Position numbers and translations under genes: made by a program
From: Euglena gracilis
Lineage: Eukaryota
Reading direction: 5' to 3'
DNA length: 64,000 nucleotides
Assembly: GCA_039621445.1 (NCBI GenBank)
Contig: CP154954.1
Coordinates: 20,198,642 to 20,262,641, forward strand
Part shown: piece by piece, positions 3,381 to 60,561 of the stretch
Numbering within the stretch: the stretch's first letter is position 1
How the letters are laid out: each line of letters starts with the position of its first letter
Notes under the pieces: model-generated
What the model was told of the DNA's origin: nothing
Seen by the model: the letters and a program-made list of their open reading frames with translations, nothing else
Database searches by the model: none

Positions 3381-4633
3381 AAATGATTCAAATCAATGTA
3401 AATCAAATCCGAACCAGATTATCATTTCATTGCAAACAAAACGGACAGACAAACAAAAAAACTTCAAGGTTCAAGCCACAGCAACAGGAAGCAGAAAATA
3501 CACACGTTGTCTCTGATGGTCGTAACGAAAACAACATGGAACAGTTTAGTAGGGACATGTTCAGGTCCAGATTACCACATTCCAAGACCTTCAAGACCTT
3601 CCAGTTGCTTCATTTCATTTCAAGCATGGACTTCAACATTTGCTTCCCAGTGAGATCTGTAGGAGAGAGAAGTATATTCACTGACAGAATTCTTTGGCAA
3701 ACCTTTGTCCTCAGCGGGGAGCTTCACAGTACAAGTCCAACATACAATTCCAATCCTTCTGTAATGAGCCCTCATTCGGGTCGGATTGGCACTGGAAGAA
3801 GAAGTTCAGAACAGGGGTCAGATTTTGTGAAATACCAGGAAGGCGGACATTAATTTGGGATTGGCGATTCCTAACGCGAACGGGGGTTTTTGTTTTTGAC
3901 AAATGTCTAAATGTCATATTAATGTCAATTGTCTGTCAGAAACCCTTGTCATTTGCCAAAATTGGGAATGCTGCTCCCGACCACCTCCAAAGTGGCATAC
4001 TTCCCCCGTGACCCCCCCCGTGACCCCCCCCCGTGACCCCCCCGTGACCCGCACCACCCCCAAAGGGTCATCCAGGGGGGGGTTCATTTAGGGGGGGATA
4101 CTTTTCCCACTTGAAAAATTGCTCTGCTCTATGACCCCCCCCCCCCTAGATGACCCCCCAGGGGGTCATCTAGGGGGGGGGGTCATTTAGGGGGGGGTAC
4201 GCGGAAGTTACAAGCGAAACTTACAATTGTAAATTACGTCGCAATGCTATTCTCGGGTCACGGGCAGGTCACGGGGGGGTCACGGGGGTATTACCCCCCC
4301 CAATCTACCGCCATGCCGTTTGGCACTCCATGTTCCTGGGCTTTGCCTCTGAACGAGGAAAACAAACAACAAAATGCGCACCTTCGTGAAGCAGTTCTTG
4401 AGGCAAATGACGTTGGGTTTGTGTGTTGTCATCCCATGTGAGAAAAAACAAGTCAAAGGTCTCTGCAAAAAAAAATGCAGTTTAAGGTTTTGTTTATAGC
4501 CAAAGGGGGGGACCATTTTTGGACCCGAAGGCAGCAACCCGCCTGAAAAAGTGCACTGGCTTGGATGAATTCCAAAATAAAAATTGGCGGTGTACTTAAT
4601 CGGCGCGGTCTCGCCCCTCAAAGGAAAAAGCGG

Positions 4634-4705
4634 TGTGACCTCGTGGGTTTCGAACCCACGACCATACCATCATAAGACATGCTCCGCCATCATGTTAATG
4701 GTCAC
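4634..4705 (-). tRNA. Degenerate tRNA-like Pol III unit (pseudo-tRNA or tRNA-derived; anticodon ambiguous, ATG or TAT)
   Basis: On the minus strand: GTGACC...GGTCAC acceptor stem, T-arm CGTGGG-TTCGAAA-CCCACG, TGG in the D-loop region, and a TTTTT terminator 4 nt downstream (plus 4625-4629). The D-stem pairs poorly. Confidence 0.65.
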
Positions 4706-4784
4706 TCTGTATGCATTTGTGTGTGCGGCAGACGGGAGATCCTACGGAGGTTGGTAGCCGGCGCGTAGTACCAAGCCGAGTATC

Positions 4785-4857
4785 GCTCGAGTAGCTTATT
4801 CGGTAAGGTGCTGGGCTCACACGCGGGAGGTCGTGGGTTCGAGACCCAGGTCCCGCC
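4785..4857 (+). promoter_or_regulatory. tRNA-derived Pol III A/B boxes in the 5' LTR (second copy at 5477-5549)
   Basis: A-box-like TAGCTTATTCGG at 4792-4803. B box GGTTCGAGACC at 4836-4846 within a TGGG/CCCA T-stem. A CTCACAC anticodon-like loop (Val-CAC-like) lies at tRNA spacing. Confidence 0.75.
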
Positions 4858-5054
4858 GTGTGAGTCCTGATCGATCCCGTACGGGCAGAGGGCATACCGC
4901 GGGGATCGATCGGCGCGTGAGGCTGCGCACGTGGACGAACGTTGATCGGTCGGATTACCACGGGCGTGGCCCCTCGCCAGCGGACGAGCCACGGCAAGTA
5001 GCATGAGCTGCCCCGTGGCCGTCCAACGGCGGGTGGTGACGACCGACGTAAACA

Positions 5055-5067
5055 TGGTAGCAGAGGA
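5055..5067 (+). promoter_or_regulatory. Primer binding site complementary to the 3' end of initiator tRNA-Met
   Basis: TGGTAGCAGAGGA directly follows the 5' LTR and is the reverse complement of the eukaryotic tRNAi-Met 3' end (...CCUCUGCUACCA). Confidence 0.85.
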
Positions 5068-8000
5068 ACCCGTCTAATGCCACACGAACCGGGAAGTCAG
5101 AGCCTGACCCCACGGCGCCCGGAAGGCGGAGGCGGACGCGCCGAGTCTAGGGCGACTGAAACTCCTACACCGTTCCAAAGTCTCAAGCCGATGCTAAGGG
5201 GGACGCTCCAAGGCGGCAGAGCCCGTGGAAGTCGACAACACGTAAACTGCCGGCAATAGCAAACCCGAGCTGCAGGGGTCGGCAGCCTGGTGACGCAGTA
5301 CTCGTGAGAAGCACTCAGCCAACTAGGGCCGTGTGAGGCATAACCCGAGCTGCAGGGGCCACGGCCATAGTGACGCAGTGGGCTAGTGTAGTAAGGCTCT
5401 TGGGAGGGGAGTGTGTGCGGCAGACGGGAGATCCTACGGAGGTTGGTAGCCGGCGCGTAGTACCAAGCCGAGTATCGCTCGAGTAGCTTATTCGGTAAGG
5501 TGCTGGGCTCACACGCGGGAGGTCGTGGGTTCGAGACCCAGGTCCCGCCGTGTGAGTCCTGATCGATCCCGTACGGGCAGAGGGCATACCGCGGGGATCG
5601 ATCGGCGCGTGAGGCTGCGCACGTGGACGAACGTTGATCGGTCGGATTACCACGGGCGTGGCCCCTCGCCAGCGGACGAGCCACGGCAAGTAGCATGAGC
5701 TGCCCCGTGGCCGTCCAACGGCGGGTGGTGACAACCAACGTAAACAATTTGCCATGGACTTTTATCAAAATTTCTTAAAGAATGTCATTTTGGCCATTTT
5801 TTTTTTGCCAAACAAGTGCTCTTGTAGTGAACTTCACCAGTGAAGTAAACTTCACTAGTGAAGTTAACTTCACCCAATTTACCTTAACCAAATTTAACTT
5901 ACCCCCACCCCCCTCAAAATGTCACCCCCCAAACGTGGCCAAATTTTTTGGCAAATTTTGGTTTATCCCCTCAAAGGGTTTACCCCTCATTTTCCTTCGA
6001 CACCAAAGGCGACAAAGGGCGAAATTTGACCTCCCCTCCAAAGTGCCCCCCCCCCCCGGAGTGGCCATTTGGGTGCCACGATGCCTGGAGGGTGGCCACT
6101 TTGAGGGGGGTGAGGGTAGTGAAATTAAGTTAGTTAAGCTAACTTCACTGAGGCAGATGAGGGGGAGGGTTTCCGGGACCCCCCCCCCCGGTGTACTTCA
6201 CCATAGTTTCAAACAATGAACTTTATGGGGGGTCAAAATGCAAGGGGTGTGTGATTTTTTTAAAATTTCATAACTTTCATAAATTTCAAAAATTACCGTA
6301 AGTTACGGTAAGTTACGGGTGTGCAAATCATCAAAAATAAATTACGCAAAATTTGCAATGCTACCCGAGAATGGAGCCTTCAATTTTCATAATGCATCAA
6401 CCTTCATCACTCCAGCCTTTCTTTTCATTCAATCAGCCTGCTTTTTGATGTAGGTGGCGTTTTTGGTCGCTTTTCATCAATTTTCTGCTTCAAACCATCG
6501 AAAATTTGCCTTGACATGGTCAAAAACATGGAAAGAAACGCCAAGATTTGAGGTGAAAAGATTTTCGACCCAAACAATGGTGCCTTTTTGGCGTATTAAT
6601 TTGACCCAAAATATGCCCCATTGGCAAAAGCGGAGATTGTGCAAGTCTCATGGCAAAAGGGGTGGAGGGGAAACATGAAATTTTTGTGGAAGAAAAAACC
6701 CTAAAAAGCAGAAAAGAATTGTCCTCACCCCACCTTCCATTTGGGCAACCAAATCCCTTTTTGACACCCAACATCCAATGCACCTTCACACCCAAAAATG
6801 GCCAAAAATCTTGCCCCTAAATGTGCCAAAATTGCATTTCCACGCCCAAAAGGGGGTGTTCCCCCCGCGTCCCCCCCCGCGTCCCCCCCCGCGTCCCCCC
6901 CGCGCCCCGGATTTTGGCCGTGCACGTTTTTGGTCGACCAAAGGAAAATTACATACAAAGTTAGGTGATGCCAAAGAAAATGTGTGGGGGTGGTTGGGCC
7001 ACGGTTCCCCCCGCGTCCCCCCCGCGTCCCCCCCCGCGTCCCCCCCGCGTCCCGAACCACCCCCAAACAGAATTTTGGGTACATTTTTTTCCTTCAAAAT
7101 GGCCATTTTGGGCCATTTTCTCCAAAATGGCCCAAAATGCATCCCAAAAAAAAGTGACGGTCAAGAAATTCCTAACAAAATTCGCTTTCAAAAGATGAAA
7201 AAAAAAAGATCAAGTTCGGACATAAAAATCACCCACCGTGTCGCCAAGACCAAGTCGCCCAATTGGTCGGCCAGAATATTGTTGCAAATTTGTCCAAATC
7301 GGAAAAATCTGGAAATCGCCAAAAAACCACACCAAAAAGCGCAAAAGGCGGCCCCGGGCGGATTCCTGTGGGTGCTCATCCTGGGGGTGATGCCGACCTG
7401 GTCGGCCCGACCACCTGGTCGGCCCGACCATGGTCGGGCCGACCAGGTCGATAACTACCCCTGGGGGTGATACCGACCAGGTCGGTATCACCCCCAGGAA
7501 TCTGCCTTCCCCCCCCCCCCTTTTTGGAAATTTAAGCCCCCCCCCCGGGTTTCCAAAAGACGAGACCAACATGCACCCGAAAAGGGGTTGGCAGATAAAA
7601 GGGGTTGATTTTGTTAATGAAAGGGATAGGGTTTTTTTTTGATTTTGTGTGCATGCGCAACCGGACACCCATTGTCGGAGGGCGCCTTCGGCGCCCTTGG
7701 TCGTCTGGCGGGGGGGGGGGGCTGCCGCCCCCCCCTGCACCCCCGCCCCCCCCGCCCCCCAATGACAAAATCCCTTTGCTGCCGGACCATTTTGTGTGCA
7801 TGCGCAACCGGACACCCATTGTCGGAGGGCGCCTTCGGCGCCCTTTGTCGTCTAGCGGGGGGGGGGGGCTGCCGCCCCCCCCCCGCCCCCGGGGCGTTTG
7901 GTCAAGAAAGGGGGGGGGGTTCAATTAGGGGGGGGGGGAGGTGGTAATTGTCAATTAACCGTAGTAACAGTGGGTAGTCGGCCGACTCGTCGGCCAACCA

Positions 8001-10860: not shown

Positions 10861-11580
10861 CAGGGTTGGGCAATTAACCGTTATTATTGGGGTCAAGCGA
10901 TTAACCATGGTTAACTGGGGGTCAACAAGCGATTAACCAATTTTCGATTAACTGTGCCTTTCCCTCGATTAATCCCGATTAACCGTCACAAAAAAATTCA
11001 TAGTGTCCCTACCCTTGAGCAGTGTTGTGCACCTTGCCAAATTGGTGCCTGAAAACATCATCCCCAAACCAGAGCTTAGACTCTCATTCATTGGATGGAT
11101 CATGAGCCAAACAAACGAAAAAAATAAAAACCACACGAATCTCTGTTGCCGAGTCCAATGGGTCAGATAGCCAAGTTGACGTAAATTCATTCGCACAAGC
11201 ATGAGCGCATCAACGGAGCAATCACTAAGGCGCTTGCGCAAATCATTGGGGTCGGAGCTTCTTTCATCTGATGACACCCCTCCTCGAAGGGTTATGTTCG
11301 GTGTTGCAGTTGAAAATTGCCTCTTTTCCAAAAGGGAACTTCGATTACCCACACAACGAGGTCTATCCCCCACCCAGTGTCTAAGTCCCCAAAGGGTGGA
11401 GAAATGTTCCCAAACCCAAGACACCTTTGATTTCTGCAAAAAAAAGGTCGATTAACTGGGGGGCCACAAGCGATTAACCGTTTTTCGATTAACCATGGTT
11501 AATTGTCCCCCCCACAAACGATCGATTAACTGGGGGGGTCACAAGCGATTAACCGTTTTTCGATTAACCATCCAACCCTG
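10861..11580. mobile_element. Internally deleted hAT element
   Basis: TIR CAGGGTTGG / CCAACCCTG, 8-bp TSD TCTGTGGC, subterminal CGATTAAC repeats. A minus-strand remnant LRKRLSDCSVDALMLVRMN resembles the hAT C-terminal dimerisation region. Confidence 0.85.
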
Positions 11581-12401
11581 TCTGTGGCAATGACACGTTT
11601 TCGATTAAGGCATCTGTGTTCAGGCACGTTTTCCATTAGGGCATCTGTGGTAACCCCGAGTAAAAAGCAAAAAGCGCTGTCGCAAAAAATCAGCGGGCGG
11701 TTGCGAGGCCGGGTGGTCCTCAACGAGTGAGGCGGGTCGGGGGCACTCTACAACAGGACAGAAGGCCAGGTGGCCTGGGAGCACAACGACACGGAGTGGC
11801 AGACATCATGGAACACGACACGCTTTACACAAAAAAGAGCCATACTTTGGTGGCCGCCGCAAATCTTGGCAATGAAAATGATATGCCAAACCGCAGGCGT
11901 CACACACAACTTTGTTCAGCTCCACACAATTTGGATTTTTGAGAATGGCAAAGAAGAAAAGAGGTTGCCGAACGATTCCCTGAAACGAACAAAGTTCCCG
12001 ACTGCTGCTCACGTTGAGCCACACATTGTTCAAAGACGCTCGCCTCATCGAACAACAGGCTGGGTTCCAGCTCCCATCCCGTCCAGGCAACAAAGAAAGC
12101 ATCCAGCTCAGGATAAGAGGCTTGCCGATGTTGACACAGTTTGGCGAACTCCAAACAGTTGGCAACAGCAGCAAGCCCCCCCCCCCCCCGGAGTGGCCAT
12201 TTGGGTGCCACGATGCCTGGAGGGTAACCACTTTGAGGGGGGTGAGGGTAGTGAAATTAAGTTACCATCCCCCCCCCGAGCTATTCCCCCCCCCCCGAGC
12301 TATTCCCATTGGGGGTACGGGAATAGCTCACTGTCATAGCACTTTTTTATAAAGAACTTCCTAAGAAAGTGGTAAAAAAAATCGACGTTTTTGGACCATT
12401 T
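11136..12401 (+). repeat. ~1.27-kb direct duplication, copy 1 (copy 2 at 19143-20408)
   Basis: Near-identical sequence from CG(A/G)ATCTCTGTTGCC to GGACCATTT flanks the transposase-bearing insert on both sides. Confidence 0.95.
11806..12000 (-). pseudogene. PHD-finger-encoding terminal exon or remnant (duplicated at about 19815-20010)
   Basis: Translation ...NCVELNKVVCDACGLAYHFHCQDLRRPPKYGSFLCKACRVP* matches the C-x2-C..H-x2-C..C-x2-C spacing of a PHD finger. Confidence 0.6.
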
Positions 12402-16958: not shown

Positions 16959-18985
16959 GGATACCGCCGCGAGAACGGTGGTGGGGCGAACCGAATCCAC
17001 CGACCAGTGGCACTGCCTACTGGATTTGAGTGTTCAGAGAGGGGGAAGCTATGTACAGATGGGGAAACCCCATGGATAGTCAGAAGGGGTTTGATAGTCA
17101 GGGAAGGGTAAGCGGGGACGAAGGGGGCTTAGCGGCCGATGGATGCTGGGGAGGGGGAGGCTGCGCGGCCGGGCGGTTGGGGAGAGAAGCGTCAAGGTTC
17201 GTGGTGGCGTCCTGGTGGAGATTGGCCTTTGGCGGTGATGCAGGGATGAGCCGCCGTGGTGCATGCTGGGACTTGATTTGGCTGCCGCTGCCTTGGAGCT
17301 CGCGACGAGACGGCGGACGTCGTGCTCAGTCTAGGTGTTGAAGAGGGCGCACAAGCGCTTTCAGCGTAGGATGTGTTTCGGGCGCAGCATTTGCGCAAGC
17401 TGCCGGAAGAGTGAAAGCGCCAGAAGCTGGTAGCTCTCGGCCTGGCGCGTGGCACCGATGTCTCCGCGATCCCATGAGGTGGTGCATTTGATAATCCGGG
17501 TTAGCAGCTTTGCGCTTTCGGGTCCAAGGCCACCCCACGTGCCCATGGCCAGGGTGGCAAAGGACCATCCCCCGTTTTGGCAGGGAGTGTCGTACTTAGT
17601 ATGCTTGGCGACCTCCTTCCTTTTAAGGAACGTCCTCCACCGTTCCCGAGTGGCCAGCCTTTCGGCAGCTTGCCAGCCATGGGCGATGGTGATGTCCACT
17701 GCCGTGGGCTTCCCATCCTGCCAGGTAGCTAGAAGCAGGTCAGCCGGCCGCAGCGAGCTGTCGGGTTGGTTCGGCACCGGGACCTCGCGCTGCACGCTTT
17801 GACCGTTCGTTGACAAGATGTTAAAAAGTGCGTCTTGAACGGCGTTGTGGCGGTTCGCAAAGTTATTGCGAATGCAGCACAGATCGTGGTCGCCATGGAC
17901 ATCCACGGTGGCCTGACAACCAGCACAGATGGTTGGAGAGTCCGCCAGTGGCAAGCCCAGCCACCATTTCAGTCCCAGTCGGTAGTCTGCCGGGTCGATG
18001 ACAGTGTGCAGCGCTTCGTGGGGAGGTACCGCCATCCACCCGTGCCCGATGCCGTTGACTTGCTCCAGGAGCCGTGCTTGGTCACGTTGGGCTGACCTGT
18101 CCACCAAGGCATCCACAGTGGTTTTGGCAGACTCCTTTTGCCACCATCGTTGGGAGGTATCGTTTCCTGAGGCGCAAGCGAAGGCGGCGGAGTTTGCTAG
18201 GCGACTGCTTTCCGGGTGACGATTTCCTAGCGTGGAACACAAGTCATGGGCGGCTTGCTGGCAAGTGCGGTCGTCTGGGGCGGCAGCGTAGTCAGGGCAT
18301 GCCACCTTCTTGTGGCCGTGTGTGTAGAACTGACATAAGGCTGCAGTGCGGGCGGCGCCTTGGTGGGACGCCGGAATTCGGAGGCCGCAGCCGCCCGCTG
18401 AGAGCGGTAACGCTGCTTGTAGCCGCTGATCCGCGTTCAGGGCCTGTCCCAGGATATCTTCGAAGGCGCTGAAGATGGTCTCACCGCAGCGTGAGACTTC
18501 GCTTTGCGCTTGATACGAATCTGAGGCACGCAGGAGGTGGTTTACGCGACAGCCGTCCAGACAGTAGCGGAGGAGATGGTGGGCCAACTGGGGATCGGCG
18601 ACCGAAGTAACGAGGTCAGCAGCTTGTTCGATCTTTTCAGTTGCTTCCGCCCAGGCGGCGACAGTGTGGTCTGCAGAGCTGGGGAAGTCGACTGGGCAGC
18701 CCAGGACCGTGATTCCGGACCCCTCGGCCCAGGGCACCATTTTCAGAAGTTCTCGGTCGGGGAGGCTGGCTGCTGCTGGTCCCCACAGGACACACTTGGC
18801 CAGATTAAGCTGTATCCCAGTGCGACTGCTTTCGCTGCGTAGGTAGTCAAGGCACTTCTGAAGAACCGTTGGCTCTCCTACGAGGATTCCGTCATCCAGA
18901 TACCAGCAGGACCACAGCAGTTCTGCTTGGGTGCTGATAGCCTCCGCGATGGACTGCAGGCCAACAGCAAAGCCGATCGGCCCCA
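16959..18985 (-). mobile_element. 5'-truncated RLE-type non-LTR retrotransposon, CRE-like
   Basis: 13-bp TSD AGGGCAGAAAAGG at 16946-16958 and 18986-18998. The element carries the RT/RLE ORF and about 400 bp of 3' UTR with no poly(A). Confidence 0.9.
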
Positions 18986-18986
18986 A
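17361..18986 (-). CDS. Reverse transcriptase C-terminal half + CCHC zinc knuckle + restriction-like endonuclease (5'-truncated)
   Basis: PLGP..YLDDG (RT motifs), LPLSAGGCGL, CAGC..HDLCC..RHNAV, RPADLL..AVDITI..KEVAKHTKY (PD-D/ExK RLE). The 541-codon frame is intronless. Confidence 0.9.
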   Translation of the reverse strand: MGPIGFAVGLQSIAEAISTQAELLWSCWYLDDGILVGEPTVLQKCLDYLRSESSRTGIQLNLAKCVLWGPAAASLPDRELLKMVPWAEGSGITVLGCPVDFPSSADHTVAAWAEATEKIEQAADLVTSVADPQLAHHLLRYCLDGCRVNHLLRASDSYQAQSEVSRCGETIFSAFEDILGQALNADQRLQAALPLSAGGCGLRIPASHQGAARTAALCQFYTHGHKKVACPDYAAAPDDRTCQQAAHDLCSTLGNRHPESSRLANSAAFACASGNDTSQRWWQKESAKTTVDALVDRSAQRDQARLLEQVNGIGHGWMAVPPHEALHTVIDPADYRLGLKWWLGLPLADSPTICAGCQATVDVHGDHDLCCIRNNFANRHNAVQDALFNILSTNGQSVQREVPVPNQPDSSLRPADLLLATWQDGKPTAVDITIAHGWQAAERLATRERWRTFLKRKEVAKHTKYDTPCQNGGWSFATLAMGTWGGLGPESAKLLTRIIKCTTSWDRGDIGATRQAESYQLLALSLFRQLAQMLRPKHILR

Positions 18987-19142
18987 GGGCAGAAAAGGAC
19001 ACGCCGTGAGCGCGAGGGCAAGCAGATCCTACTTTGAGTTTCCGACAGTTTCCGACAGCATTTCGACATTTTTGACGTTTTATTCCTTGTCGAAATGGTC
19101 TTTTTGTCTTTTTCCTAGTAAAAGACACTTAACTCCACACTG

Positions 19143-20408
19143 CGGATCTCTGTTGCCGAGTCCAATGGGTCAGATAGCCAAGTTGACGTAAATTCATTCG
19201 CACAAGCATGAGCGCATCAACGGAGCAATCACTAAGGCGATTGCGCAAATCATTGGGGTCGGAGCTTCTTTCATCTGATGACACCCCTCCTCGAAGGGTT
19301 ATGTTCGGTGTTGCAGTTGAAAATTGCCTCTTTTCCAAAAGGGAACTTCGATTACCCACACAACGAGGTCTATCCCCCACCCAGTGTCTAAGTCCCCAAA
19401 GGGTGGAGAAATGTTCCCAAACCCAAGACACCTTTGATTTCTGCAAAAAAAAAAGGTCGATTAACTGGGGGGCCACAAGCGATTAACCGTTTTTCGATTA
19501 ACCATGGTTAATTGTCCCCCCCACAAACGATCGATTAACTGGGGGGGTCACAAGCGATTAACCGTTTTTCGATTAACCATCCAACCCTGTCTGTGGCAAT
19601 GACACGTTTTCGATTAAGGCATCTGTGTTCAGGCACGTTTTCCATTAGGGCATCTGTGGTAACCCCGAGTAAAAAGCAAAAAGCGCTGTCGCAAAAAATC
19701 AGCGGGCGGTTGCGAGGCCGGGTGGTCCTCAACGAGTGAGGCGGGTCGGGGGCACTCTACAACAGGACAGAAGGCCAGGTGGCCTGGGAGCACAACGACA
19801 CGGAGTGGCAGACATCATGGAACACGACACGCTTTACACAAAAAAGAGCCATACTTTGGTGGCCGCCGCAAATCTTGGCAATGAAAATGATATGCCAAAC
19901 CGCAGGCGTCACACACAACTTTGTTCAGCTCCACACAATTTGGATTTTTGAGAATGGCAAAGAAGAAAAGAGGTTGCCGAACGATTCCCTGAAACGAACA
20001 AAGTTCCCGACTGCTGCTCACGTTGAGCCACACATTGTTCAATGACGCTCGCCTCATCGAACAACAGGCTGGGTTCCAGCTCCCATCCCGTCCAGGCAAC
20101 AAAGAAAGCATCCAGCTCAGGATAAGAGGCTTGCCGATGTTGACACAGTTTGGCGAACTCCAAACAGTTGGCAACAGCAGCAAGCCCCCCCCCCCCCGGA
20201 GTGGCCATTTGGGTGCCACGATGCCTAGAGGGTGGCCACTTTGAGGGGGGTGAGGGTAGTGAAATTAAGTTACCATCCCCCCCCCGAGCTATTCCCCCCC
20301 CCCCGAGCTATTCCCATTGGGGGTACGGGAATAGCTCACTGTCATAGCACTTTTTTATAAAGAACTTCCTAAGAAAGTGGTAAAAAAATCGACGTTTTTG
20401 GACCATTT
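19143..20408 (+). repeat. ~1.27-kb direct duplication, copy 2
   Basis: Near-identical to 11136-12401. Confidence 0.95.
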
Positions 20409-29245: not shown

Positions 29246-32200
29246 GAACAAACGGATGCTGAAATGGACGAGAAAGGAAGGGATTTTGTCAATGAATACA
29301 CCGTGATCAAGCACTTGGGATCTGGAACATATGGCACAGTAAATCTGTGTGAGCATTATCAAAACAGGCAATTTCTATCAAGCACTCATGGGACGGGAAA
29401 CAAATTGCTGTCTCCACCTTTGTAAGCCCTTGTTTTTCAAAGGCTGAACACCAGTATTTCACACGAGCATTTGCAATTTGAAATTTTGCTATTTTTTTGT
29501 CAACTGGAGTTTTCCCTAAGTTAGACCCAGGCTTATTAGTTACCTCCCAAAAAGTCTGTCAAGATTGCCTGCCTCTGACGCAGGAACAGTATGCGGTGAA
29601 GGTCATCCCTCGTGCAAAGGTGAAGAAAGCAAATGTGGCGGAAGCTGAGATTTTGAAGAAGCTGAACTGAGGCCTCATCCTGTGCCAACTCTCTGTAAGT
29701 TTGTGCGCGATGATCAGTGTTTTTGCCAGTTTCTTTCCAGTATGTTCCAGAAATCTATGAGGCAGTGGTCTCCATGCAACATCCGAACGTCATTCAGATG
29801 TATGAGTTGATGGATGACGCCGGGCAAGAGTTCATTTACCTTTTGCAGGCTTCTTCTCCACAGCGATATGTGGCATGAGAAAGGTTTTTTTTTAGGGTTG
29901 GTCTGCCAGGCTACCACAAACTCAGGCAAAAAAGGGGGGACAGAGGCGGAAAACAGCGCCAGACCAGAAGAGAACAAACAGCCGCAGTGCATGCATGGGC
30001 GGATTTGCACGTGTGCCAGAATGAAGCTAAAGCCTGATTTCGTGCTAGAGTTTGTGGCGGACGGTGCCATTATGTCCCTCGATGGAGATGGCCAAGCAAA
30101 GACACCCACCCTAGAAGAAGTCACTTGTGCAAAGTGCATGAAGCAGGTCACAGAAGGGCTTGCCTACCTGCACAGTATGAACATCATCCACCGCGATATT
30201 AAGCCAGACAACTTGCTCATAGACAGAAAGAAAGACGTTGTCAAGCTCTGTACTCAGGGTTCTTCCTGATTGTCAAAGGGTTTTCTGAGAAAAAATCATT
30301 TTGAAAGAGATGTGGAAAGCCTGAAGTGTGGAGCAATGGAGCAATTAACACAAAAAATGATTTTTTCGGCAGAGGTATTTTGTTCACAAGGCTTTTGTGG
30401 CAGGCTATATTTCATTTTCGCCTCCAGAACAGAAGAATGTTTTTTGATTTCGCCGTGCATTTATTTTGAGGCAGAGGGCTGATTGCTTCATTTTCATCAT
30501 AGGAAGCATTCCTTGCACCCCAACCATTATTCCCAAAAAGAACGGGAAGACGCTCTGTGCTTCGATTTCGGCGTCGGAATGCTGTTTGAGAACGAGAACG
30601 ACACAGTGCGCAAAACGGAGGGTACCCCGTTTTTCCTGGCTCCCAGCCAGGGCTGCACCGCAGACCCCCACAGGCGCTATGCGGGTCTCCTCCCTCCCCT
30701 GGCCCCCTCGCGCATCAGGCTCGCCCGTCCAGCCGTGGCTCCGAGGCCTGCCGGGGGCAGTACTACTCCGGGAAGTCCTCCGATATCTGGCAACTTGGTA
30801 TCACGCTGTTCGCGTTGATTTTTGGCCCTCCAGGGAGCTTAATTGTGGCTGGGGCTCGTGGTTTCGAAGTATCAGATATCAAAATGATGTTGATGGACCC
30901 CACCTGCCAGGGGGGGGGGGCGATAAAATCACCCACCTTCTTTTAATCATGGGTGGGTCAATTATGGGTCTGGCTGACCGTTTCCATGACAGATTTATCC
31001 TCTGGGGGAGGCTATGTGTGGGTTGCCGGGGAATTATGACAGCGTGCAGGGGAATGGTAGGGCTGGCAAATATGGTTAAATTCTCTGGTCCATTTCTGAG
31101 GATGACTGGAATAGGGCCTCGGGAGCAAGTTTCTTGAGGCTCCTGGGTTGTATTACTCAAGGTCTCTGCTTCTGTGTGCCATTCTTAGCTGCAAATCAGG
31201 TCGCCCTCTTCAACGACATCCAGCAAAAGCCTCTTTCTGGGCAAGGGGCAACTTATGCCACTCCAGAGATGCAGATCTTCTCCTCTTCCTCTTTTTTTCG
31301 GATCGGCGACACACAGACACCAACAGCAGCCAATTTCAATCAACAAACATTGCTTACGGCGTGGATGGGTGGATGGAGAGCGATGGGTTGCAGTGAAGCA
31401 ACCAGAAACCCCTCAGTTGACCCCTCCAATTGAACCTGGGAGCCACTACCCCCCCCCTTAATAAGTGCACGGGTGCGCGCATTTTAAGGACGTAGTTTCA
31501 GACCCCAAGGGGTGCGCATTCATTAGGGCACTGCGCACTTATTAGGACGAAGTTTCCCCCACACTTTTTCATTTTGTGATGTCAAGCAATGAATCAAGAG
31601 ATCATGTGTCAAATCTGTGCTTGGATGATAGAAATATTTCGTCTGAGAAGGGCAGTTCTGAGAAATGTGTGTTCTTTTCCGACCTGAGATGTGACAGTGA
31701 TTTCTACTTCGGGGGGATGCGCACTTTTTAGGGAGGTAATTTCGGACCCTTGGGGGTGCGCACTTATTAGGGCACTGCGCACTTATTAGGGCACTGCGCA
31801 CTTATTAGGGGCGGGTTTACAATCAAGCAAGAGGGGTCCAAATGAAAGCTGGAGGCAGCAGAAACCGGCAGTGCAATGTCAAATAGTGCCATGCTTTTGC
31901 CCCGCAGGTAGCAGTCCGCCACCTGCGCTTTGATGGAGAGCTTAGGAAGCTGCATTTTCATTTTTTCCGCTTTGTTTGGCAATTTGCCCATACCACACCA
32001 GACCACACTACACCATACCTTACCTGACCTTATCTTTCCTTACCTTACCTGACCTGATTTTACTACAACATACCATACCATACCATACTGTACGTACCGT
32101 ACCATACCATACCATACCATACCATACCATACCATACCTTACCTTACCGTATCGTACCGTACCGTACCATACCATACCATACCATACCATACCATACCAT

Positions 32201-34680
32201 ACCATACCATACCATACCATACCATACCATACCATACCATACCGTACCGTACCGTATCGTACCGTACCGTACCATACCATACCATACCATACCATACCAT
32301 ACCATACCATACCATACCATACCATACCATACCATACCATACCATACCATACCATACCATATCATACCATACTGTACCGTACCGTACCATACCATACCGT
32401 ACCGTACCGTACCGTACCGTACCGTACCGTACCATACCATACCATACCATACCATACCATACCATACCATACCATACCATACCATACCATACCATACCAT
32501 ACCATACCATACCATACCATACCATACCATACCATATCGTACCATACCATTCCATACCACACCACACCACACCACACCACACCACACCACACCATACCAT
32601 ACCATACCATACCATACCATACCATACCATACCATACCATACCATACCATACCATACCATACCATACCATACCATACCATACCATACCATACCATACCAT
32701 ACCATACCGTACCGTACCGTACCGTATCGTATCGTACCATACCATACCGTACCGTACCGTACCATACCATACCATACCATACCATACCATACCATACCAT
32801 ACCATACCATACCATACCATACCATACCATACCATACCATACCATACCATACCATACCATACCATACCATACCATACCATACCATACCATACCATACCAT
32901 ACCATACCATACCTACCATACCATACCATACCGTACCGTACCATACCATACCATACCATACCATACCATACCATACCATACCATACCATACCATACCATA
33001 CCATACCATACCATACCATACCGTACCGTATCGTATCGTATCGTACCATACCATACCATACCATACCTTACCATACCATACCATACCATACCATACCATA
33101 CCATACCATATCGTACCATACCATACCATACCATACCATACCATATCGTACCACACCACACCACACCATACCATACCATACCATATCACACTTTATGGCA
33201 GAGAACTTCATCCGCCTCCCGGAGCCAACGCTGCCCAGTGACAGCATCCCAAAGGGGGCCAGTGCCAACTTGAGCCACCTGCTGCAGCGCATGCTGGAGA
33301 AGGACGCCCTCATCCGCATCTCCCTCAATGAGATCAAGGACCGCCCGGGCCCCTTCCAGCATGGCTCATGGGCGAGGTGAGGACGCACTCTTATTTTGTC
33401 AACCCCGTGTGACTTTTGTCCGTCTGACCTATCTGACGTTCCAATTGTTGACCTCTTCCGTCCTGGCAGAGTACCCCCGAGGTCCAGCCAAGAGCCCGTT
33501 TCTTTCCAACCCCCTCCCTTCGATGAGCTCTGACTTCCTATTCAGCGCTTCAATTGTTACAGGGGTTAGGACTGAGGTTTCTGAATTTCTGGTCACAGGC
33601 CACACTGGCCCTCAGTCTCTAAAGCGCCACCATGAAGGAAAGAGACAGTTTTGGTACCTTTTTTTATACCCACCGCAAGATGAAACCAAGTTCTTTTGTT
33701 TCCCCTGTGCTTCACCCCCTGATAAGTGACCCGAAAACCCTGGTCTTGCCCCCCCCCCTGCATGGCAACTGCAACCGCTTTCAGTGAATTTCAACTGTAA
33801 CAAGGTTCAGTGAACTTCGAAAAGATGGCATTGCATTATTTGCCCAAACCCCCAAGCCAGTTTATTTGTTAGCTCCACGAGATCGGCCGCCCAAGTCAAA
33901 AATGTATGGCCCAACCCAGGGCATTCTTCAAGGGACGGGGCAAATATTTTGTTTTAAAATTTAAAGGTCCGCCCTTGGGCTAAATGCTGTCCACCTGCCG
34001 GTCTGGGGATTGAACTGGGTTGAAAACTAAAAAAAAAATAACAGAAAGCTTTAAAACACCTTTTCTGATATATTCAGTGGATGGACGATGGACCAAGGAT
34101 GCTAGAAATCAATTTTCCCCCAATGCCGACCTGTTTTCGCCGAAAAATGTCAATTTTTTCACCACTTTTTTTGCAAGGATTTTTTGTTGTTGAATGTGTC
34201 CGGATAGCAGAAAACAAGCACCTTAAACTTGAAGGTAGCCCTGGCCAAGCCCCAAAATTTTTGTTTCAAAAACGAGCTTTTGTTAATTGTGGCCAAACTC
34301 AAATTTCCCCAGTCTGGTCGAACCCAGGTCGGGTTCCAGCCAGTGCACTATGTCTCATGGGGGAGGGGAGGACGGTCAGCAGGCCAGCCACTGAGCCATC
34401 CCAACCAGCCCAAATTTTCTGACCTCAAGGCCACTGGGGGGGGGGGACTCTGGTGCATATTCGACAGGGGCAAGTGAGAGTCATTTTCTCAAAAAAAGAT
34501 CATGTGATACTGAACCGGAATTTTTTTTGCTCCGGAGATTGAAGGCGACCGCTCACACCCCTGGGTCACGGGGGAGAACAGCCCCGTGCCGAACTCCATG
34601 CGCCTGGTGGCCGCCGCCTCCGCGGAGAGTCTGACGTACTCTGAGCCGCCCGTCGCCGGCTTCTTCTTGCGCCTCGTCCC
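29246..34680 (+). CDS. CaMKK-like Ser/Thr protein kinase domain (multi-exon)
   Basis: Spliced translation: VNEYTVIKHLGSGTYGTV..YAVKVI..HPNVIQMYELMDD..IYLVLEFV..HRDIKPDNLL..KLCDFG..RKTEGTPFFLAPE..YSGKSSDIWQLGITLFALIFGRVPF..MLEKD..RISLNEIK.HPWVT. Introns at 29362-29576, ~29660-29773, 29843-30041, 30252-30563, 30645-30742, 30828-31173, ~31234-33209 and ~33340-34554. Confidence 0.92.
32050..33185. repeat. (TACCA/TACCG)n pentanucleotide microsatellite inside a kinase intron
   Basis: About 1.1 kb of ACCAT units with ACCGT, ATCGT and ACCAC variants. Confidence 0.97.

Positions 34681-41869: not shown

Positions 41870-60561
<18,692 letters not shown>

Follow-up and report, generated by a model that had tools for sequence, protein, structure and literature searches.

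We analysed a 64-kb window of Euglena gracilis DNA from contig CP154954.1; the window is the whole stretch, and all coordinates count from its first letter. It contains a 1027-bp terminal-repeat retrotransposon in miniature (TRIM), a non-autonomous element bounded by two long terminal repeats (LTRs), each with a segment that we read as a decayed copy of a tRNA. The element is flanked by a target-site duplication (TSD), and a primer binding site (PBS) as well as a polypurine tract (PPT) adjoin its LTRs. The features of the locus are as follows.

4720-5746, plus strand: element proper, 1027 bp without the target-site duplications (4715-5751 with both duplications).
4715-4719, no strand: left TSD copy, ATTTG, from sequence comparison; contigs of the empty site have a single ATTTG.
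4720-5054, plus strand: 5′ LTR, 335 bp, TG...CA ends, 333/335 identity to 5412-5746.
4785-4857, plus strand: tRNA-derived segment of the 5′ LTR (LTR positions 66-138), Rfam tRNA, 15.8 bits.
4792-4803, plus strand: box A, TAGCTTATTCGG, of the form TAGCT..CGG, which fits the TRGCY...YGG given for Helenus elements in PMC10886601.
4836-4846, plus strand: box B, GGTTCGAGACC, an 11/11 match to the consensus GGTTCGANNCC.
4811-4869, plus strand (5503-5561 in the other LTR): long hairpin that pairs the anticodon-like region with sequence just past the tRNA-like part.
5055-5072, plus strand: PBS, TGGTAGCAGAGGAACCCG, abutting the 5′ LTR and able to pair with the 3′ terminus of a tRNA-Met of the initiator type.
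5055-5411, plus strand: non-coding interior, 357 bp.
5259-5299 and 5338-5379, plus strand: imperfect repeat inside the interior, 41-43 bp, 84%.
5402-5411, plus strand: PPT, a purine tract, GGGAGGGGAG, abutting the 3′ LTR.
5412-5746, plus strand: 3′ LTR, 335 bp, TG...CA ends.
5477-5549, plus strand: tRNA-derived segment of the 3′ LTR, Rfam tRNA, 15.8 bits; its box A lies at 5484-5495, its box B at 5528-5538.
5747-5751, no strand: right TSD copy, ATTTG, from sequence comparison and the empty-site contigs.

The sense strand of the interior holds a single ATG frame, of 60 codons. None of the five ATG open reading frames (ORFs, at least 40 aa) that overlap the element matched Pfam at E ≤ 1, no Pfam match was obtained for the stop-to-stop frame 5097-5774 on the minus strand, and the 64-kb window contains no second copy of the element. 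Over its first 13 nt the PBS is identical to a site engineered for human tRNAMet(i) (PMC1797187), which supports a primer of the initiator tRNA-Met type. With its LTR ends, PBS and PPT, the element is a complete TRIM that carries the full cis-equipment for reverse transcription and integration. A first-pass annotation, made from the letters of the window, had described a complete TRIM with 335-bp TG..CA LTRs, an initiator-Met PBS, a PPT, a 5-bp TSD and no protein, and all of these were found; the coordinates that it gave, 4715-5751, are correct and include the duplicated target.

The insertion itself was followed in public sequencing data. Seventeen runs hold at least half of the sampled words from 4600-5900, and the contigs of two DNA runs (X1 and X8), of one run labelled metatranscriptomic RNA (X20) and of one run guessed to be RNA (X19) were aligned to positions 4200-6300 at 80% identity or more. 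Four contigs in each of X1 and X8 represent an empty site, in which 4698-4714 (17 bases) is joined to 5747 onward with one ATTTG; a junction from 4720 to 5753 was also seen in single contigs. The empty-site contigs may derive from alleles of the flanking repeat or from its paralogues; in both cases the boundaries of the insertion are fixed. The element was inserted at ATTTG and duplicated those 5 bp.

The two LTRs differ only at positions 5041 and 5045, with G in the left copy and A in the right one. Both have C at 4978/5670 and at 5002/5694, where T makes up 79-100% of the family depth. The sharing of these rare variants is predicted by a single round of reverse transcription; each LTR has its nearest relative in the other. 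Positions 5041 and 5045 are polymorphic within the family too (10-31% A), and the differences there may be CpG changes that followed the insertion or heterogeneity that was inherited. The proposal that near-identical LTRs reflect a recent insertion is reasonable with 2 differences in 335 positions, though both sites vary in the family.

The segment within each LTR was compared with tRNAs in several ways. The Rfam tRNA model aligned over its full length (1-71) to both LTR segments, and the D-loop, the anticodon-like loop CTCACAC (CUCACAC), by which the segment is Val-CAC-like, the variable loop and the T-loop fit. The A-box, anticodon-like and B-box sequences that the first-pass annotation had described at tRNA spacing for each LTR were present in both, and within the 64 kb, on both strands, the two LTRs are the only places where a box A and box B pair occurs at this spacing. 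Exact matches to box B number three in the window, two in the LTRs and one in a tRNA-like unit of the flanking repeat, versus 0.54 expected from shuffles. The 22-mer at 4826-4847 is found verbatim in six viral contigs, and in 6/6 it occupies the variable-loop/T-arm position of tRNA sequence; four of these matches lie in phage tRNA genes called by ARAGORN (His, Asp, Ile and Gly), and two are cut by locus ends. A 31-mer of the tRNA-like part had no match in the genome and viral collections. We read the segment as tRNA-derived, as a sequence that is not a tRNA gene and in which the promoter boxes are intact.

The family of the element is very abundant and comprises at least a long-LTR and a short-LTR subfamily. 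Over the 2.1-kb stretch, 4678 contigs of X1 and 6930 of X8 aligned, counts that include contigs of the flanking repeat. Divided by identity (99% or more, 95-99%, 90-95% and below 90%), they number 1076, 1401, 1496 and 705 in X1 and 1746, 2239, 2118 and 827 in X8. A single-copy element, the case that the first-pass annotation had named as speaking against its reading, is not what was found, since thousands of family contigs align at 80-100% identity. Summed depths, which are not readable as copy numbers, were 108k-366k over the element in X1 versus 0.8k-55k in most flank bins; the flank bin 6046-6116, which holds another repeat, reached 210k in X1 and, in the DNA runs, is as deep as the TRIM. 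At position 5002 the letter of this copy, C, makes up about 0.06% of the depth in X1 and about 0.14% in X8, and from these shares we infer, roughly, that the LTRs of the family number in the order of one thousand or above.

The short-LTR subfamily is represented by contigs of 346 nt in X1 and of 341 nt in X8, which retain 4792-4909 with 22 differences in 118 positions (about 81% identity), have 17 other letters in place of 4910-5047, and then continue into the LTR end, the PBS and the interior. Further joints, from 4856 to 5052 and from 5601 to 5053, point to the same shortening of the LTR. These contigs indicate that the 3′ half of the LTR is dispensable and that the subfamilies have the 5′ 190 bp, including the tRNA-like part, in common. 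Another joint in X8, from 5746 to 5066, belongs to a family variant with 9 other letters where the PBS has its first 11 nt. The variant represents either damage to one copy or a subfamily whose primer site is different.

An architecture of this kind is already published. Kojima (2024, Biology 13:119; PMC10886601) described Helenus as part of a proposed class named TRIMp3, with hosts in Pucciniales, some Agaricomycetes, six animal phyla and Selaginella. According to that paper, Helenus elements are 311-1263 bp long, make a TSD of 5 bp in fungi and plants and of 4 bp in animals, and conserve box A (TRGCY..YGG) and box B (GGTTC), mostly with no tRNA-coding ability. The Euglena element is likewise a TRIM with tRNA-like sequence in both LTRs, both boxes kept and no functional tRNA. 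Its PBS and PPT are accompanied by the 5-bp TSD of the fungal and plant Helenus, and its 1027 bp fall inside the size range. It differs in its LTRs, which at 335 bp exceed the longest reported there (323 bp), in a copy number that appears, by rough inference, much larger than the 5575 or fewer LTRs reported, and in its euglenid host, which lies outside the taxa listed there. A literature search covering Helenus and TRIMp3 from 2024 on and Euglena TRIMs returned no report of an element of this type in euglenids. We consider it probable that the element represents a TRIM of the Helenus type, a non-autonomous LTR retrotransposon 1027 bp long in whose LTRs a decayed tRNA copy lies, and this judgement extends to the explanation set out below as a whole; the assignment follows the structural criteria of the published description.

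Other known systems are more distant. Cassandra, a plant TRIM with sequence derived from 5S rRNA in its LTRs, shares with the Euglena element the non-autonomous TRIM structure, an internal promoter for RNA polymerase III (Pol III), putative in the Euglena element, that stems from the gene of a small RNA and is placed in the LTRs, and tandem or abundant copies. It differs in that 5S (a type 1 promoter) was captured instead of a tRNA (type 2), in its size of 565-860 bp and in that its transcription by Pol III was shown (PMC10886601); in the account given there, Cassandra alone has so far been validated for Pol III. Ajax, from the same study, is also a TRIM with promoter sequence derived from a small RNA and a 5-bp TSD, and it differs by its partial 5S rRNA, its tRNA-Leu primer and its occurrence in two nemerteans. 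The first-pass annotation had cited Cassandra for 5S-derived LTR sequence, in agreement with PMC10886601, and had cited Ajax as a tRNA-in-LTR element of oomycetes. The latter was mistaken: in that paper Ajax is 5S-derived and nemertean, the group with tRNA in the LTR is Helenus, and oomycetes are unmentioned. Short interspersed elements (SINEs) derived from tRNA (SINE2) resemble the Euglena element in their decayed tRNA head, which keeps both boxes A and B, their high copy number and their lack of coding sequence. They differ in lacking LTRs, a PBS and a PPT, all three of which the element has, and in being moved by long interspersed elements (LINEs). Retrozymes, non-autonomous LTR elements of plants with hammerhead ribozymes, are small, non-coding and carry a structured-RNA module in the LTR; they differ from the Euglena element, in which a hammerhead match is absent. 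The Rfam search of 4400-6000 gave 13 matches at E ≤ 10, none of them to 5S_rRNA or a hammerhead.

In the mechanism that we favour, box A and box B of the tRNA-derived segment would act as an internal Pol III promoter, a step that we hold as a tentative proposal, slightly short of an even chance. Transcription would start near 4775-4785 and read through to the first T4 in the flank, at 5760, giving an RNA of about 980 nt with the repeat region R in both LTRs, which would be a valid template for reverse transcription. The sense strand of the element is free of T3 and T4 runs, with the first T4 at 5760. The proteins of an autonomous LTR element would then package the RNA, reverse-transcribe it with an initiator tRNA-Met as primer and integrate the product. 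Such a partner would share this primer and leave 5-bp duplications, and it could be Copia-like, the pattern reported for Helenus elements with a 5-bp TSD (PMC10886601), or Ty3-like.

Several results weigh against this reading. The tRNA alignment scored 15.8 bits versus an Rfam gathering score of 29 and is sub-threshold. ARAGORN at default settings called no tRNA gene in the window; with a relaxed threshold it called a different and inconsistent register (4808-4889, Ser), and at the 70% threshold it produced many obvious false positives. The segment is predicted to fold (minimum free energy, MFE, -48.6 kcal/mol, z = -5.1, 0/200 shuffles as stable) into a hairpin and not a cloverleaf. The lack of T4 is uninformative as a Pol III signature, as 934/1000 shuffles are also free of it, and a transcript of about 980 nt is long for Pol III. 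RNA-type contigs exist, namely one 661-nt contig of X20 that runs from interior to LTR to interior with 17 differences, and coverage of 5065-5601 in X19 with 2 differences; these contigs show the presence of the sequence in the libraries, where DNA carry-over is possible, carry no information on transcription starts and are weak evidence, and stretches left uncovered in these runs carry no weight. The case for conservation of the boxes across the family is indirect and comes from summary tables of one contig alignment. With regard to the partner, no second matching PBS beyond chance was found in the 64-kb window, and no gag or pol domain was found in the 35 ORFs tested (30 of the 85 frames of at least 150 aa plus the five that overlap the element).

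The 1.27-kb repeats at 11136-12401 and 19143-20408 were considered as a possible partner and rejected: TG..CA ends and a fitting PBS are missing from them, and they do not resemble the TRIM. Metagenome matches to a 19-mer of the LTR end and PBS came from six loci with no likeness beyond the pattern and no tRNA, and are attributed to chance, as are seven viral matches to a 17-mer of the PBS.

A functional tRNA gene is ruled out by the absence of ARAGORN calls, by 6/21 stem pairs that are non-canonical in the tRNA alignment and by the hairpin fold. In the covariance-model check that the first-pass annotation had proposed, the match was full-length and its score below the threshold. The claim that the element brings its own Pol III promoter is conjectural, given the sub-threshold score, the missing ARAGORN call and contigs that are silent on RNA starts.

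The most serious alternative, which we regard as less probable than the favoured explanation though still a real contender, is that the same TRIM is transcribed by RNA polymerase II (Pol II) like ordinary TRIMs, and that the tRNA-like segment is a passenger with no present promoter role. The passenger could be, for example, a SINE head of tRNA origin, from a SINE that inserted into an LTR in the past and came to be copied into both LTRs. The decayed stem pairs and sub-threshold score, the hairpin in place of a cloverleaf, the length of about 1 kb and the non-significant depletion of T4 all suit this explanation, as does the statement in PMC10886601 that Pol III activity of Helenus is unvalidated. 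Also in its favour are several contigs whose match to the LTR breaks off at 4916-4919 and gives way to other sequence, with an A9 run in one consensus; a related SINE-like family could account for them. A passenger, however, has to be reconciled with a box B that matches its consensus at 11/11 positions and a box A that fits TRGCY..YGG, and with the retention of the segment in a subfamily whose LTR 3′ half was replaced. No variant reaching 10% falls in 4785-4857 or 5477-5549 among the 40 of 83 variant rows listed, and just about 65 bp of LTR lie upstream of the segment to accommodate a Pol II promoter.

Another alternative is that the tRNA resemblance is coincidental and that the tip of a GC-rich hairpin merely looks like a T-arm. 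The Rfam E-value, which counts all 4227 families, was 6.6 in a search of 1.6 kb and 0.44 in one of 106 nt; the former value favours coincidence, as do the stable alternative hairpin and the empty default ARAGORN search. Against it, dividing by the number of families ourselves gives the tRNA family by itself an E-value of roughly 1e-4 to 2e-3, the alignment covers the whole tRNA model with all loop signatures, a box A and box B pair arose in just 1/100 shuffled windows, and the 22-mer recurs verbatim at the same position of real tRNA genes. We regard coincidence as improbable. Least credible, to the point of being nearly negligible, is that there is no mobile element and that a 692-bp unit was tandemly duplicated in place, for which the single pair of copies within the window could be cited and which is contradicted by the TG..CA ends, the PBS abutting one repeat and the PPT the other, the exact 5-bp duplication at the flanks, the empty-site contigs and the thousands of related contigs elsewhere in the sequenced DNA.

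A further feature was recorded in the sequence around the insertion.

4632-4705, minus strand: tRNA-like unit in the flanking repeat, outside the element, called by ARAGORN only at the relaxed threshold, with an exact box B at 4656.

In this unit the acceptor stem pairs at 6/7 positions (one mismatch) and the T-arm is perfect, and a T5 run at 4625-4629 on the minus strand lies 2 nt past its end. The TSD of the TRIM is located 10-14 bp upstream of the 5′ end of the unit. Ty3-type integration targets Pol III start sites. The position of the TSD recalls this type of integration, as a single case from which no preference is claimed. Repeats rich in long homopolymer runs of C and of G, which form inverted pairs, were also observed around the TRIM locus, at 4011-4290, 5900-6130, 12173-12264 and 20181-20272; a 92-bp unit of these repeats has three occurrences at 95-100% identity.

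What makes the element notable is its apparent abundance and, possibly, its host. A broader proposal would be that it represents an independent Helenus-type origin in a protist (euglenid) lineage, is among the most abundant repeats of its host, is transcribed by Pol III and integrates near Pol III units in a Ty3-like manner; we think this combination unlikely. If it were true, this would be the first Helenus-type element outside fungi, animals and plants, and the family could explain part of the inflated tRNA counts in large protist genomes. The Euglena gracilis assembly, of 2.37 Gb with 21.8% LTR elements, has 4882 predicted tRNAs (PMC11252322), and in rust fungi the over-represented predicted tRNA types are mostly Helenus copies (PMC10886601, table 2). 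Elements such as these blur the boundary between SINEs and LTR retrotransposons and mislead tRNA gene prediction, and masking of the family is advisable ahead of tRNA and gene annotation of the genome. The known range of TRIMp3 would become wider with a family of very high copy number in a new host lineage, which would also favour the view that LTR elements have captured tRNA promoters repeatedly and independently, and a young, abundant family is a possible system for testing directly whether Pol III drives such elements.

Other features of the window were noted. The direct repeats 11136-12401 and 19143-20408 are 1.27 kb long and 99.2% identical, have no TG..CA ends and are about 8 kb apart from start to start. 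Between them, at 17361-19028 on the minus strand, lies a reverse-transcriptase ORF of 555 codons, unrelated to the TRIM, with a weak RVT_1 match that shows YLDD. Inspection by eye adds a Cys/His cluster and a motif of the PD..D type, as in the non-LTR elements with a restriction-like endonuclease, and the 66 homologues of the ORF, up to 76% identical, are all metagenome or transcriptome proteins. An open frame at 29811-30269 on the plus strand contains a fragment of a protein kinase domain (Pfam Pkinase, 3e-17) and is probably an exon of a host gene, in keeping with a eukaryotic window; protein look-ups of this frame and of the reverse-transcriptase ORF returned a mixture of eukaryotic phyla. 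Tandem arrays of very short units occupy 43175-43950 (periods of about 8/12 bp) and 31946-33400 (about 10/15 bp), the latter with a strong GC skew of -0.52.

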